64,000 bases of DNA from an uncultured delta proteobacterium (lineage in GTDB: Bacteria > Desulfobacterota > Desulfomonilia > Desulfomonilales > Desulfomonilaceae), in contig CAWBKB010000003.1 in the NCBI GenBank assembly GCA_963789265.1, positions 480,001 through 544,000 of the forward strand, read 5' to 3'. This document shows positions 42,001 through 48,000 of the stretch, one piece after another. The position numbers are program-made. How positions within the stretch are numbered: the stretch's first letter is position 1; each line of letters begins with the position of its first letter.

Positions 42001-45000
42001 CCCCCCGAACAAGCAGCGTGCCGTCTTCAGTGAGTTCTATATATCCTGGAGTAGTTTTCCAGCCATCACTCTCGGTCTTCTCTTCCGAGCCAAAGAAAAG
42101 ACGAATCTGCTCTTGGGTGAGATTGGCATCGCCTTCGTTTCCGTTAGGATTTCCCCCACCAAAAGTTTGGTCCTGGCGAGCCCTCATCAGGTCGAGCAGC
42201 AGGAAAACGCTCTTGTATTGGGGACTTATCCTGAATAGAGCATGAGCTAGAACTTCCTTCCCCACGCCGGTCTCCCCAATTATAAGAACGGGACCATCTG
42301 AATTAGCAAACACTTCAAGCTTCGCGGAAAGGTGACGGCGAACGTAATCCCCGATCACATAATCCGGGAATATATGCTCTTCCCGGCTTATCAAAGACTG
42401 TAAGGCCCGCCTCTTCGCCTTATTTGCAAGGACACTGCGGTCCAGACGCATTATTTTGCGGGCCAAATTCCTTATCAAGGCCACTGTGACGTCGGGATGG
42501 TTGTGGACGATTTCTTCGAAATCGCGAGCAGGAACCTCCAATACACTGCAAGGCTCGTTGGCCACTATCTCCGTATTCGCGGGCGACGGATGTCCGGTGA
42601 GGAAGCTGATTTCTCCGAACATGTCGCCGGGTCGGAGAACCTCGACAGCCATCTCCTGGTCGTCACCATCTCGGAGCATTACGCCGGCCTCGCCGGCCAT
42701 TAGCACGCGAATCCGGTCTCCGCTGTCTCCCGGGGCCATTGAAACGTCTCCGGGACTGTATTCCAGCAGCAGACCCTTTTCCTTGACCATGAGTCGAACG
42801 TCTTCCGGGAGGCGCTCCAGTGCTTCCAGATCCATCTCACACGGGTAGGGGATTTTCAGCATGTTAAAAGGGTGCAGAAAGGTGCTTGTCTATAAGAATA
42901 AGAAATCAGAACAGTTCCAACCTAACTATTGCTGATTATAGCGAGATCGCAGCTCTTTCACAAGATGAGCCGGCAAAGAATTTCCCTCTTTTCACTTTGT
43001 GACGCTCATTCGCGTTAAGTTAAGCCAATTTCGTTCCTTTTCGGGAGGTCCATGCAGGCCGAGGGCGATCAAAGTCCCCCTTTTCTAAAGGGGGATTTAG
43101 GGGTATTTTAAAGTAGTTATCCTAAAATCCCCCCTGCCCCCCCCTTACGAAAGGGCGGGAACCCCACGTTCCGCGGGGTGGCCGGTCCTACAGTCCCACG
43201 TTCGCGGCCATGACGACGGACGAGACCCACGTCCTACGCATCAGTGGTAGGCCCCTTATCCCGCGAGATGCGATGGGGGAGTACTAGGTCAATAAGTTCT
43301 CCAACGTCCTCGGCCAAAACCACCTCCAGGCCGTCCGTCACGTCGTTCGGCAAGCTGTTGACATCAACTTCGTTCCGCTTGGGAAACACGACTGCCTTCA
43401 AGTTTGCCCTTTGCGCCGCCAAAACCTTTTCACGAATACCGCTGACGCCCAGGATCTTGCCATTGAGGGTGATTTCTCCGCTCATACCCACGCAGCGTCT
43501 CGCGGGTCGGGACGTGAGGAGAGAAATAAGTGCCACGGCAATTGTAACTCCCGCGGATGGCCCGTCTTTGGGGACCGCGCCGGCCGGGATGTGGATGTGA
43601 ATGTCATTTCCGAAAAAGAAACTCAGGATCTATACCGTAGAGATCGGCATGGCTCCGAACATAACTCAATGCCGTCTGGGCGGACTCTTTGAGGATTGCG
43701 CCGAGCGAACCAGTCAGAATTAGCTGCCGGCTACCTCTCATCCGGGTAGCCTCCACAAAGATGATCTCCCCACCGAATTCGGTCCAAACAAGGCCGGTGG
43801 AGACGCCCACCTGGTCCTCTGCTTCAAGTGCCTCATGTGAAAATTTCCGCGGGCCCAAAAATTCCCCTACGAGGTTCTCATCCACCACGGTGGGGAGGGG
43901 ACTTTCATTCTGCTTCAAGCAGATGCGGGCCAGTTTCCGGGCGATATTGGCTATTTCACGCTCGAGATTCCGTAGCCCCGCCTCTCGGGTATGGTCCTGA
44001 ATGATTTTCACGATGGCCGAATCAGTAAAGTGTACACCCTTACCGACCAGGCCGTTGTCCCTCAACTGGCGAGGGATCAAATAATCTTTAGCAATTTCTC
44101 TCTTTTCTTTTTCAGTATAGCCGGGAAAGTTAATCACTTCGAGCCGATCCAGGAGAGGCGTGGGGAGGTTTTCAACTACGTTGGCAGTGGCGATAAACAT
44201 AACGGACGATAGATCGAAAGGCACATCCAGATAATGATCTACAAATTGATGGTTCTGTTCGGGATCCAAAATTTCGAGCAGGACGCACGCAGGGTCTCCT
44301 CTGAAATCCTGTCCGATTTTGTCGATCTCGTCCAGCATAAACACGGGATTTTTGAGGGCCAAACGCCTGACTTCGCTCATGATGCGGCCGGGCATGGCCC
44401 CGACGTACGTTCTTCGATGGCCTCTTAACTCGGCCTCATCGCGCAGCCCCGCCAGCGAAAATCGTACGAATTTCCGTTCCATCGCGTCGGCAATGGCCTG
44501 ACCGATAGAGGTTTTTCCCGTTCCGGGGGGGCCTGAGAAGCAGAGGATGGGCCCACGCGTTATTTGTGCGTGCCGTTTCTTCTCAAGTATCCGATTAACG
44601 GTGGAGCGCAAGTCATCCAGCTTGAAAGGTTTTGCCAGGTAGTACGCAGCCCCCTTTGTCAACGCGTCCACCGCGGAATCCACAGTGGCATACCCTGTGA
44701 TCATGATTATGTCGGTGAAGGGCGTCGTTCGTTTTATGGTCTCCAAGAGTTGAAGACCATTCATTTTCTCCATTTTGAGGTCGGTGACAACGAGATCGAA
44801 CGGTTGACATTCCACCTTTTCCAAAGCTTCGATGCCGTTGCACACGGTTTCTATCTCATGACCTTGCTTAACCAGAACATGCTCGATGTTTTCACGGGCG
44901 ATCGCTTCATCATCCACCACGAGAATCCGAGATGTCTTTTTATTGCGGAGCGTTCTGACAGCAAGGTACTCGAGTATCCGCTCTTTTACGAGTGCCAAGC

Positions 45001-48000
45001 CGTAGTGTCGGCTTTGTAGAACGCGCTCGGCCCTTTCGATGTCTAAATTGTCCTCCGTATAACGGTTCCAAGGAAGAGATACGAGGTAATCGAGGTAAGT
45101 TGTGCCGATAGAGTATTCCGCTGCAGACGGGTCGGTCTTCTCAAGCCTCTCCAGTTCCTTCCTGGCCACTTCGGCTACATTTTCCGGCAAATGTGCTTTT
45201 TCGATCTCGCTTTTGAGGTCGAGAATGTCTTGAGCCACGTGGGGTTGTTGCTCTTCGGTTTTTCTGAAAAAGGCCATTACGAACCTCTCACTGCACCCCA
45301 GCCTTAATGACCGAATTATAGAGGGAAAACGGGAACGCCACAACAGGATTGATTTCGAGTTCGCGGCCCAGCATGAATTTTGATTCCCACCCTGCCGAAG
45401 ACCGGCCGTTGCATTATGTAACGGCTCGCAAAACCCGCGTAATGGGAGTCAATCTCCCGAAATTACGGCTATCGCGCCAGCCTTCTGCAAAAGTGTTACT
45501 TAACGCAACATTCGGGGGTTCTTTTGAGGCCTGCACGTTTCAAGTCATTTTTTTCAAAAGCCGGTCACGAAGGCGTGTTATCGATTTGGCACGGTATTTG
45601 ATGGTCCACAGACAGACGGTAATCCGAACTGTCCCGGAGGTCAACATGGGATTCTGGAGAGAAAAATTTGAAGCCATGGCAATGGCCGTCGCGTTCGCGG
45701 AAGCAGGGGAATGGGATACAGCCCGATCTCTCGTGAAAGATACGGGAGCACCGCGAGTGGGAAGGACTGCGAAAACCCGGAAGCGGACGGAAAACAGGCC
45801 TAAAAAGAGATTATTCAGACTGTAACGTGCAAGACAGACACCGGTGACGTCGGCTTTTGCGGCACACCATGATTTGTTCGAGCCGGTTGAGTGATAGATT
45901 TGAAGTTGGAGGAACATTATGGCGGCAACATATCGCCCTACAAAGAAAAAGCTGGCGCTAAAGACAATTGTCTTTGGCGTCATTACTGCAACACTTTATG
46001 CCGTGGCATTTACGCATTCCGACGCGATGCTGCAACTTTTCACGAAGGGTGGATATTATGCGGCCCTTCCGATTGCCACGGTTTTTGTCTTCTCCTTCAT
46101 TCACGGAACGTTTGCAAGCAATCTCTGGTCAATGCTGGGAATCGAGGCCATAACGAAACAGCCTGCAAAACGTCCGGAAGTCAGACCCGTACCGCGTCCG
46201 GCCCAAAGGCCGCGACCTCGTTTGCGCGCAAATTTGTAGTTGCTATCTAATCAGGAGGACATGCCAAATGCACGACTTGGCCTTGGAAGGCATAAAATTC
46301 ATAGATCTCACTTGGATGAACGTAGCTTTTTTGTTCACGGTGGGATTCATCGGTGGCCTGGTAAGCGGTTTTATAGGATCCGGAGGAGCATTTGTCCTTA
46401 CTCCGGGCATGATGAGCCTGGGGGTCCCGGCCGCGGTCGCGGTGGCCAGCAATATGTGTCACAAGTTCCCTAAAGCCATGGTCGGAGCGTACAGAAGGTT
46501 CAAATATGGCCAGGTGGACTTGAAGCTCGGGATTGTAATGGCTGCTTCAGCGACAGTGGGAGTGCAGGCGGGAATAAAAATTCAAGAGATGATTCTGGCG
46601 AAATGGGGAGAGGCCGGCTCAGACCTCTACGTCAGCCTTTCGTTTGTCACCGTGCTTATCGTCGTCGGAGGTTACGTCTTCTATGATGCGTGGAAAACAC
46701 AAAGATCCGGCGGGGCCGATAAAGTCTCCTCCTTGGCGCTATGGCTCCAGAGGATCAATCTTCCTCCTATGATTCATTTTAAGACAGCAAACCTAAGAAT
46801 TTCGTTGTGGTTCACCGTTCCGGTGGGATTTGCCACAGGCATGTTGGCTGCGACGATAGCCGTGGGCGGCTTTGTGGGCGTTCCTGGAATGATTTACGTC
46901 ATCGGCGCTACCGGATTGATCTCTTCTGCAACCGAGCTTGTAATCGCTTTTCTTATGGGACTTGGCGGTTCGATAAAATGGGCCATTCACGGAATGGTGG
47001 ACATCAGGCTCACGCTTATCATCCTTGCCGGTTCTCTGCTGGGCGTTCAACTTGGGGCCATTGGCACGACTTACGTGAAAGAGCACATGATCAAAGTGGT
47101 TATGGGCACGATTATGCTGGTGGTTGCCGTAAGTCGAGCTCTCGCGGTGCCGCAGTATTTGGAGCAACTCGGCCTGATATCAATGTCAAAGTCAACGATA
47201 AGTATTCTCGATGTGGCCAGTTTCGTTTCAATGTGTATGGCGCTGGGTGTGGGAGCAATCATCATCCTTGGCAGCATGTGGAAGAGCAAGCGGGCCGCAG
47301 CCGAGCAGCTCTATTCAGCTCCGATAGTCTCAGAAGGCTATGAGCATGTTTGATCCGGTCGAGGTCCGGTAAATGGGTAGGCTCGGGGTTGCAAGTCAAT
47401 TGCAGCCCCTCTTGTTTTTGCATTCACAAACGCCGTCGACTTTCCTGAAATTCCGTGAATATTTATGGTAACCGTTTACCGCCGAGAACGCAGGGACCGC
47501 GGAGAATTGTGTTTTTGTAGGCGTTCATGCAAATGATGCGGCAATTCCGATCTGTAACAGTGAGCGAATTTCCGACCGGACTGCACGCACGGCCGACTCA
47601 ACTAACATGGCAACGAGCAATCTATCTTTCTTACCTGGGTTTGTCCGCGCATTCCGCGTTTTGCGGGACGGTGATCCCGCGTTCCTTCGCGGGATTGATT
47701 GCTTGGAGAACGGTCGTAATCATTCACTTACGTGCGGCAAAGGATTGTCATTGAGAGCGGAGCGAAGCAATCTTTTCCTATGAGTCCGTAGATTGCCAGT
47801 GGGACGGGCATCTTGCCCGTCATTTCCAATAGACAGGCTGGAAGCCTGTCCCACCATTCACTCCTCGCAATGACGGTACCCGAAGATTCCCCGCATAAGT
47901 GAAGGAATACAAACGATCGTCGTTTTCATTTGACAGGCTGTTCTGAACTTTGCTATTTTCAGGAATGAGCGTTCATTCCGAATTGCGGCGAGGGAATTTT

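Follow-up and report, generated by a model that had tools for sequence, protein, structure and literature searches.

A frameshifted DVU3303-type Lon protease with an inserted receiver domain and its kinase-activator module

Receiver-Lon proteins and the window locus

Two-component phosphorylation that ends in regulated proteolysis is known from CpdR (ClpXP) and RssB (ClpXP/RpoS), which are proteins of one or two domains, distinct from the protease to which they bind. A Lon protease with a receiver within its own polypeptide (REC-Lon), for which the same outcome is predicted, has also been described. In the sections of Rajeev et al. 2011 (Genome Biol 12:R99, PMC3333781) that deal with DVU3303, this protein was listed as a response regulator 'containing a lon protease', was grouped with the kinase DVU3304 and the sigma-54 activator DVU3305 as a "three-component system", and was proposed to carry out phosphorylation-dependent proteolysis. 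The relevant part of Trotter et al. 2023 (PMC10102598) gave a cofitness > 0.9 among DVU3303, DVU3304 and DVU3305, which by our own reasoning may reflect polarity, since DVU3303 is first in its operon. Literature searches found no phosphotransfer, ATPase or protease data for any REC-Lon member. The genome-wide survey's note had presented a phospho-gated Lon family, which would need no adaptor, as new; the claim of newness fails because those sections of the 2011 paper already contain the architecture, as DVU3303, together with the same hypothesis.

We analyzed a 64 kb stretch of desulfobacterotal DNA (the window) that carries a REC-Lon gene (Table 1). As far as the system of D. (Nitratidesulfovibrio) vulgaris Hildenborough is covered in the parts of Rajeev 2011, Kazakov et al. 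2015 and Trotter 2023 that concern it, the two loci share a receiver placed before the AAA+ module of an N-domain-less Lon, a nearby kinase and sigma-54 activator, a divergent operon that encodes a membrane/anion transporter, a UspA protein and hypothetical proteins, and the activator motif GTTGC-N5-GCAAC upstream. They differ in that a TauE operon, a TetR gene and a DUF362 gene separate REC-Lon from the kinase-activator operon in the window, whereas this operon follows DVU3303, and in that the window copy, unlike DVU3303, is frameshifted. Synteny, Nitratidesulfovibrio relatives and the DNA motif, rather than the DVU3303 sequence itself, were the basis for assigning the window gene to the DVU3303 family as an orthologue-class member. 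The named relatives of the Desulfovibrio-type locus were Nitratidesulfovibrio spp. with 87-89% identity. Exact matches to the published primer used to clone DVU3305 were found at 27 loci, all unrelated, and when the Desulfovibrio-type protein was used to look for related loci, no new REC-Lon loci emerged, a generic Lon peptide pattern having saturated the candidates.

Table 1. Features of the REC-Lon locus, in window positions.
Feature	Position	Strand	Remarks
REC-Lon gene	45277..43234	-	Lon protease without LON N domain, with inserted receiver (REC); split by a one-base frameshift
Piece A, 557 aa	43604..45277	-	Covers the N-terminal helices, the receiver and the AAA+ module as well as the first half of the protease domain; the frameshift creates the TGA at its end
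Piece B, 128 aa, other frame	43234..43620	-	Second half of protease domain with catalytic Ser (PKDGPSAG) and Lys (GIREK)
Frameshift site	43604..43621	-	One extra base; T-rich stretch 43621-43610 with T5 run 43617-43613
Helical segment, residues 17-111	44945..45229	-	Homologous to the LonA region before AAA+; aligns with B. subtilis LonA 3m6a chain residues 13-103
Receiver domain, residues 118-227	44597..44926	-	D122, D123, D166, T194, K216
AAA+ module and Lon lid, residues 245-457	43907..44545	-	Walker A K255, Walker B D316/E317, pore-loop Y291
Two GTTGC-N5-GCAAC palindromes	45408..45509		Spaced by 87 bp, one mismatch per site; upstream of REC-Lon; DVU3305 binding motif according to the pertinent entries of Rajeev Table S7/S9
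Sigma-54-like -24/-12 element TGGCAC-N5-TTGA	45587..45601	+	45 nt before the small ORF; suggestive by placement only
Small ORF, 59 aa	45646..45825	+	Conserved N-terminal AFAEAGEW-type motif, basic tail; no Pfam family
Membrane protein ORF, 106 aa	45919..46239	+	Conserved directly before TauE in several loci; no Pfam family
TauE/SafE-type anion permease	46268..47353	+	DVU3299 counterpart; divergent from REC-Lon
NtrC-type sigma-54 activator	50196..51557	-	REC, Sigma54_activat, HTH_8; its receiver is closer to that of REC-Lon than any other paralogous receiver in the genome
Membrane histidine kinase	51554..53002	-	HAMP, HisKA, HATPase_c; candidate kinase of REC-Lon
Kinase operon/Usp control region	53060..53704		Perfect GTTGC-N5-GCAAC at 53180, 53267 and 53501; sigma-54-like elements 53074-53060 (-) and 53690-53704 (+)
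Usp-domain protein, 237 aa	53730..54443	+	DVU3298 counterpart; second AFAEAGEW-type motif copy ahead of the Usp domain

Domain anatomy and distribution of the family

The Pfam search of piece A found Response_reg at residues 118-227 (1.9e-28), AAA at 245-383, Lon_lid at 407-457 and Lon_C at 465-554 (profile positions 2-91); positions 92-203 of the Lon_C profile were found on piece B. LON_substr_bdg (PF02190), the N domain of LonA, was absent from REC-Lon in this search, as were Sigma54_activat and a DNA-binding domain, so that only Lon-type AAA, lid and Lon_C accompany the receiver. The protein starts with a conserved M-x-F-F-[RK]-K. The NCBIfam model TIGR00763 (endopeptidase La) matched piece A best over model positions 336-683 (7.6e-167), with 557.1 bits against a cut-off of 608.05, and piece B over 682-794. 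The architecture and Pfam coordinates given by the survey's note were thus reproduced (its Response_reg E-value was 8.6e-29), and so was its TIGR00763 match to piece A; only the match to piece B differed, having been placed at 711-794.

REC-Lon shares with LonA (solved e.g. as 3m6a, 4ypl and 6u5z) the pre-ATPase helices, AAA+ module, lid and S16 domain, and is 51-56% identical to the genome's own LonA copies; the three canonical LonA genes named by the survey were present without stops. Unlike LonA, it lacks the LON substrate-binding domain, scores under the TIGR00763 cut-off, falls in a separate clade and carries a clean insert of about 127 residues where LonA has 1-7. Query residues 21-111 aligned with 3m6a chain residues 13-103 and residues 239-663 with 105-527, while one of the genome's own LonA paralogues aligned over 17-111 and 240-665 with a 2-residue gap. 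Both alignments give the receiver one insertion point, which lies after the last pre-ATPase helix (alpha-0, EYLAV...) and ahead of the Walker A strand (GPILCF-GPPGTGKT). D122, D123, D166, T194 and K216, which provide the acidic pair, phospho-acceptor Asp, Thr/Ser and Lys of a PF00072 receiver, were invariant in 134/134 sequences, as was Y213. Equally invariant (134/134) were Walker A and B, the pore-loop Tyr and the Ser-Lys dyad of the S16 domain, which in the window lies on piece B; together with the lid, these identify a Lon-type protease.

Besides the window's own product, 119 homologue clusters were listed, all single ORFs of 643-703 aa with PF00072 and 71-87% identity. Full-length REC-Lon occurred in 44 of 400 other sampled Desulfobacterota genomes (about 11%, plus one partial copy), spread over 15 of 111 families; the survey had counted such single-ORF homologues in 12 of 100. 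The family, which that note described from many Desulfobacterota, is not limited to them, being present also in 49/301 sampled genomes (about 16%) of the Nitrospirota-type phylum of the Thermodesulfovibrio record. None of the 401 genomes sampled from the phylum of the Cellvibrio record reached E 1e-190. A gammaproteobacterial candidate locus was rejected as a canonical LonA with a LON domain, and long, high-scoring proteins of the representative library were rejected as tandem-AAA+ Lon forms without a receiver. In a tree of the AAA+ and protease parts, 26 REC-Lon sequences lay on one side of a branch (SH-aLRT 99) opposite 29 LonA sequences; this tree, like that of the receivers below, was a quick search with SH-aLRT support only. 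Judged from these sequences, the REC-Lon family is compact, of single origin and common in two phyla.

The conserved module and its control regions

The survey's note stated that no kinase was known. The module of REC-Lon does include a conserved kinase, along with a sigma-54 activator, and in the window the two lie 5 kb from REC-Lon (50196..53002). Their orthologues were found within about 5 kb of REC-Lon in 14/15 Desulfobacterota loci, the exception (L003) having no kinase and only a partial activator, and adjoined REC-Lon in 9/12 loci of the Nitrospirota-type phylum, where the activator was missing at three. The divergent TauE/SafE-type neighbour, reported by the survey for five of nine loci, was upstream of REC-Lon in all 15 Desulfobacterota loci and present in eight of the 12 Nitrospirota-phylum loci (58-64% identity). 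The AFAEAGEW-type motif, counted with a short regular expression, occurred almost only beside REC-Lon, in two phyla.

GTTGC-N5-GCAAC matched six times in the 64 kb window (2.3 expected), and five of these matches were in the module's two control regions. The motif was present within 700 bp upstream of REC-Lon in 13/15 loci, at 1.46 per 10 kb compared with 0.26 in control loci. Sigma-54-like elements were found four times in the window scan against 4.5 expected, and a strict scan of both strands over 1000 bp upstream of REC-Lon in the 15 loci and the window gave no consistent promoter.

The Lon receiver was most similar to that of its own partner activator. Among 58 receiver hits in the genome, its best non-self match was the module activator (124 bits vs 102 for the next; E 3e-32 vs 7e-27). 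In the receiver tree, all 16 Lon receivers and 15 receivers of module activators fell, with one further receiver, into a clade (SH-aLRT 98) separate from the genome's 55 other receivers. Helix alpha-1, identical at 8/15 positions between the two, was the highest of 57 (median 3); in the beta5-alpha5 region the module activator was not the best match. From the receiver sequences, the Lon receiver and that of the partner activator are sisters, and both probably share one kinase. Since a paralogous kinase and regulator pair is located at C1:1934421-1936299, cross-talk is possible. Receiver pairs from the same genome gave 865 matches compared with 837.8 +/- 9.6 after shuffling, a value reached by 12/2000 shuffles; the covariation signal between Lon and activator receivers was small.

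The frameshift, the proposed switch and alternative explanations

We consider it likely that the window gene is a DVU3303-type REC-Lon, a kinase-controlled second response regulator of a conserved module, and that its frameshift is an assembly indel rather than a feature of the organism. On this reading REC-Lon is a LonA-derived ATP-dependent protease that lost its N-terminal substrate-binding domain and gained a receiver at one point. It serves as the second response regulator of a module made up of kinase, NtrC-type activator, a divergent operon of small proteins, TauE and Usp proteins. The module kinase would phosphorylate not only the activator but also REC-Lon, at D166, and with one kinase for both receivers, one signal would drive both sigma-54 transcription of the module genes and proteolysis. 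In NtrC1-type activators, the receiver controls ring assembly or ATPase. NtrC1/DctD-type sigma-54 activators (1ny5, 1zy2) likewise have an NtrC-class receiver immediately N-terminal to the AAA+ core, whereas REC-Lon has a Lon-type AAA+ module, no sigma-54 contact loop, no DNA-binding domain, and linkers of about 8 residues instead of a long coiled coil. Because the receiver stands directly before the ATPase as in these activators, the step switched by phosphorylation is most likely ring assembly or ATPase activity. The Lon receiver also resembled CpdR (2.5e-21).

If the frameshift were real in the organism, at most a truncated protein without the Ser-Lys dyad could be made, and the module would run on kinase and activator alone. 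The stop is present in the assembly, and two near-identical short contigs, one ending at 43597 and the other beginning at 43627, leave the site unspanned. The best public read run contained only 0.24 of the sampled words and had no read across the site. Relatives without the gene exist as well, a full-length copy being missing in 2/7 genomes of the same family. However, there is one break only, within a T-rich run, and pieces A and B are otherwise intact, being 86% and 76% identical, respectively, to their nearest homologue. Homologues continue across the site (DP[DE]-FFxxx-DIHIH), with the same residue count as the window once one base is dropped, and internal stops were absent from 43 of the 44 full-length copies in the Desulfobacterota sample and from 47 in the Thermodesulfovibrio-phylum sample. 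Of 66 further conserved genes in this assembly, five look frame-split too, which suggests assembly indels. The frameshift was taken as such an indel, and a true pseudogene appears rather unlikely. The survey's note had likewise attributed the split to an assembly indel; the one-base frameshift was located, and the assembly error is probable.

Two further readings accept the protein and dispute the switch. Branched two-component systems with sink receivers are established, and the two receivers here are close relatives that probably share one kinase, so REC-Lon might mainly compete with the activator for phosphoryl groups and tune transcription, its protease acting independently of phosphorylation. 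A sink needs neither ATPase nor protease, yet the catalytic residues are invariant, and its mutant should oppose the activator mutant, whereas the Desulfovibrio trio shares its fitness patterns (PMC10102598, as far as that source covers it, and subject to the polarity caveat); we regard this reading as improbable. It is more improbable still that the receiver merely replaces the N domain in docking or oligomerisation without being phosphorylated. The absence of the substrate-binding domain and the position of the receiver, by sequence, at the top of the AAA+ module would suit such a use, which the survey's note had raised as a pseudo-receiver; it was rejected on the invariance of the phosphorylation residues across two phyla, and a kinase is conserved beside the gene. 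The phospho-switched Lon proposed in that note hence had its anatomy right and is still the best reading, while its newness and the lack of a known kinase did not hold, and the family reaches beyond Desulfobacterota.

A self-clearing regulon with one kinase and two outputs is a doubtful extension of the preferred phospho-switch reading. Here a duplicated activator receiver, placed where alpha-0 meets beta-1 and next to the nucleotide site, would act as an NtrC1-like switch, and the substrates or partners would be the module's sigma-54-induced AFAEAGEW-motif proteins (59-aa and Usp proteins). The idea of a phosphorylation-controlled Lon has been in print since 2011 (PMC3333781, in the sections on DVU3303), and no later enzymology or structure was found in the literature. 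The finding itself is thus not new; added here are a single-origin family in two phyla, the sister relationship of the Lon and activator receivers, and a co-travelling small-protein motif. If the phospho-switch reading is true, no known link between two-component signalling and proteolysis would be more direct than this protease, whose motor itself bears a phospho-receiver.

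Domain architecture and reading frame of REC-Lon

The genome-wide survey's note had described a Lon protease (REC-Lon) with a receiver and without the usual N domain, and Pfam and NCBIfam searches bore out this domain description nearly to the number. No LON substrate-binding domain was found in the Pfam search. The main match to NCBIfam model TIGR00763 covered model positions 336-683 (7.6e-167; 557.1 bits, below the cut-off of 608.05), with a further match at positions 682-794. The receiver was placed in the NtrC class by NCBIfam, and its closest solved relatives were 3jte and the NtrC1 chains 1zy2 and 1ny5.

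P0003, the nearest intact homologue (86% identity), served for comparison with solved LonA structures. Its residues 21-111 and 239-663 corresponded to 13-103 and 105-527 of the B. subtilis LonA chain 3m6a, and residues 17-111 and 241-665 to 7-101 and 109-531 of 4ypl. One LonA of the window's own genome covered query residues 17-111 and 240-665, its two aligned parts being two residues apart. Because the LonA alignments run on directly on either side, about 127 residues, made up of the receiver and two linkers of about 8 residues each, are an insertion at one point, between the helix ending in RILEYLAV and the strand GPILCF-GPPGTGKT. From the general AAA+ fold we take this point to be the alpha-0/beta-1 junction beside the nucleotide site. 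No solved chain covered the receiver-Lon arrangement in the structure comparison of P0003.

The alignment of 134 sequences combined the window product, in which an X marked the break, with 119 clusters from the database at 71-87% identity and 14 loci at 50-72%. The receiver residues D122, D123, D166, T194, K216 and Y213 were invariant, as were the Walker A Lys, Walker B Asp-Glu, pore-loop Tyr, sensor-1 Asn, Arg finger and sensor-2 Arg of the ATPase and the protease Ser and Lys. Since all these residues are invariant, a pseudo-receiver, which the survey had allowed for, or a dead protease is unlikely in this family. The N-terminus of the family, M-x-F-F-[RK]-K, was kept in about 116 of the 134 sequences; in the window it corresponds to the first six codons (45260-45277).

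Across the break in the window gene, homologues read DP[DE]-FFxxx-DIHIH. Because the removal of one base from the T-rich stretch 43621-43610 restores the residue count of the homologues, the break is a +1 insertion. An assembly indel is the favoured cause, since there is one break only in otherwise well conserved pieces, copies elsewhere are intact, and 5 of 66 other conserved genes tested in the assembly also look frame-split in a rough screen whose hits were not checked individually. That proportion suggests a raised indel rate in this assembly; among the frame-split sites, a 5-base run was found at the Lon site only. That REC-Lon is a real pseudogene here is considered unlikely.

Coordinates of the features of REC-Lon, its module and the frame-split genes
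Feature	Position	Strand	Remarks
REC-Lon piece A, ORF	ATG 45277 to TGA 43606-43604	-	557 aa
REC-Lon piece B, second frame	~43620 to 43234	-	128 aa
Response_reg	piece A residues 118-227	-	Pfam, 1.9e-28
AAA	piece A residues 245-383	-	Pfam
Lon_lid	piece A residues 407-457	-	Pfam
Lon_C	profile positions 2-91 (piece A), 92-203 (piece B)	-	Pfam
NtrC-type sigma-54 activator	50196..51557	-	REC, Sigma54_activat, HTH_8
Membrane histidine kinase	51554..53002	-	HAMP, HisKA, HATPase_c
Usp-domain gene, divergent to kinase	53730..54443	+	domain search
GTTGC-N5-GCAAC sites upstream of REC-Lon	45408, 45495
GTTGC-N5-GCAAC sites upstream of kinase operon	53180, 53267, 53501
Sigma-54-like elements	45587 (before small ORF), 53060 (before kinase), 53690 (before Usp gene)	- (53060)	pattern scan
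AFAEAGEW-type motif, window	near 45691 (ORF 45646-45825), near 53937 (Usp gene)
AFAEAGEW-type motif, related loci	L006, L010, L011, L012, L187-L197
Apparent frame-split genes, window's genome (G000)	C5:320469-321151, C3:596286-597525, C1:2200125-2202708, C1:493051-495274, C3:601102-603766		rough screen

Distribution of the family

The 119 clusters among the matches listed (own product aside) were each a single protein with PF00072, 643-703 aa in length, and were named just 'endopeptidase La' or 'ATP-dependent Lon protease'; one public annotation read 'response regulator receiver modulated ATP dependent protease'. Within the window's phylum, 400 other genomes were drawn evenly, and 44 of them, from 15 of 111 families, had full-length REC-Lon. 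An internal stop was seen in only one of these 44 matches, and one additional genome carried a contig-cut copy. Two full-length genes were seen in a single genome of this phylum (G061:C19:22056-24038 and G061:C10:36607-38604). In a second phylum, that of a Thermodesulfovibrio sp. genome, 49 of 301 genomes gave matches at E 1e-190 or better, 47 of them near full length and without internal stops. At this threshold none was found in 401 genomes from the phylum of a Cellvibrio genome.

A quick tree built on the AAA+/protease part separated 26 REC-Lon rows from 29 LonA rows by a branch with SH-aLRT 99, and the two phyla formed two REC-Lon subclades (support 97 and 100). The window's split copy and the contig-cut L014, whose pieces lacked sufficient length, were omitted from it. 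When the library was clustered at 50% identity, the family was reduced to a single full-length representative plus three fragments among the best 150 matches. The representative library also held Lon proteins of 889-1379 aa (P0240-P0256) with two or three tandem Lon-type AAA+ domains before one protease domain; one had ankyrin repeats and none a receiver.

The conserved kinase and activator module

Five kilobases from REC-Lon lie the genes for a kinase and an NtrC-type activator. Module neighbours were sought by tblastn with the window proteins in related loci. TauE was divergent and upstream of REC-Lon in all 15 Desulfobacterota loci, and kinase and activator orthologues occurred within about 5 kb in 14 of them; the exception, L003, had a partial activator only and gave no kinase match. 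The survey's statement that no kinase was known thus overlooked a conserved neighbour. In 12 loci of the second phylum the kinase adjoined the activator in 9, and TauE (58-64% identity) was found in 8. In the window this module, which is contiguous in the other loci, is interrupted: genes for a TetR regulator and a DUF362/ferredoxin protein (47999..49929) separate the TauE operon from the activator. Downstream of REC-Lon (40184-42862, minus strand) is encoded an 892-aa protein that has a cNMP-binding domain, an AAA+ domain with lid resembling that of sigma-54 activators, and a membrane portion carrying 4Fe-4S motifs; by tblastn it was not conserved beside REC-Lon in other loci, where its AAA part alone matched activators. 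The 370-bp spacer between them (42863-43233) holds G/C-run and A/T-rich words that look small-repeat-like by eye, and a sigma-70-like site for this next gene at 42963-42935.

Of the genome's 58 receiver matches to the Lon receiver, the module activator ranked first once the Lon receiver itself was set aside (124 bits and 3e-32, vs 102 bits and 7e-27 for the next). In a quick tree of 89 receivers, 16 Lon receivers (SH-aLRT 99), 15 module-activator receivers and one further receiver formed a clade (SH-aLRT 98) separate from 55 other genome receivers, and the inner branching of the Lon and activator subgroups was roughly parallel. Helix alpha-1 carries kinase specificity. The Lon and module-activator receivers were identical there at 8 of 15 positions, the top value of 57 (median 3); in the beta5-alpha5 region the module activator was not the best match. 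Receivers paired by genome gave 865 matching positions vs 837.8 +/- 9.6 when shuffled, a small effect reached in 12 of 2000 shuffles. Together, the best-match, tree, alpha-1 and pairing results fit a Lon receiver that would be a duplicate of the activator's receiver with the same kinase retained. A paralogous pair (G000:C1:1934421-1936299) consists of a histidine kinase, which shares 35% identity with the module kinase along its entire length, and directly after it a response regulator whose receiver scored comparatively well against the Lon receiver, so that cross-talk is possible.

GTTGC-N5-GCAAC, the published motif of the Desulfovibrio activator DVU3305, occurred six times in the 64 kb window with at most one mismatch (2.3 expected), and five of these sites fell in the two control regions of the module. 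Of 15 related loci, 13 had it in the 700 bp upstream of REC-Lon; sites there accounted for 24 of all 41 matches and, as in the window, often came in pairs spaced by about 87 bp. Its density was 1.46 per 10 kb in REC-Lon loci vs 0.26 in control LonA loci. Sigma-54-like elements were not in excess in the window (4 vs 4.5 by chance), and a stricter scan of 1000 bp upstream of REC-Lon, on both strands in 15 loci and the window, gave no consistent site.

A short N-terminal motif of AFAEAGEW type was seen on 55-60 aa basic-tailed proteins and ahead of Usp domains, almost exclusively beside REC-Lon. The strict pattern had two matches in the 6.06 Mb genome, both inside the module, six in REC-Lon loci (4 of 15) and none in 1.1 Mb of LonA control loci. 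The relaxed pattern occurred in 10 of 12 second-phylum loci, with one control match and six in the own genome. These proteins had no Pfam family; Atlas look-alikes were hypothetical clusters of 58-59 aa (0.87-0.88), a lead only. They could be substrates or partners of REC-Lon.

Relation to the DVU3303 system

The survey had presented a phospho-gated Lon as new. This functional reading is reasonable, yet it was already published for the system of DVU3303, a Lon-type response regulator (PMC3333781). Passages of that paper (Rajeev et al. 2011) describe the activator DVU3305 as controlling the operon to which it belongs as well as the divergent DVU3302-3298, which encodes membrane, hypothetical and UspA proteins, and report orthologous pairs from other Desulfovibrio, Desulfomicrobium, Thermodesulfovibrio, Thioalkalivibrio and Dechloromonas. 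The regulon appears in an excerpt of Kazakov et al. 2015 (PMC4641369). A literature search by title or abstract found no receiver-Lon protein in further papers. The likeness of the window gene to DVU3303 rests on synteny, the DNA motif and the Nitratidesulfovibrio relatives (87-89% identity) of L016, a Desulfovibrio-type locus.

According to sections of Trotter et al. 2023 (PMC10102598), pairwise cofitness of DVU3303:DVU3305 exceeds 0.9, and under chlorate the DVU3303-3305 genes are detrimental, whereas the anion transporter DVU3299, a target, is required. As this fitness pattern is common to the three genes, it speaks for a protease that works in the same direction as kinase and activator, rather than as a phosphate sink or by degrading the activator; DVU3303 is first in its operon, so polar effects could give the same pattern.

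The window gene adds one more member to the DVU3303 family and lies in the family's conserved kinase/activator/TauE/Usp module. The module kinase would phosphorylate D166 of REC-Lon, and the receiver, placed directly before the ATPase core, may then switch ring assembly or ATPase activity and with it proteolysis.
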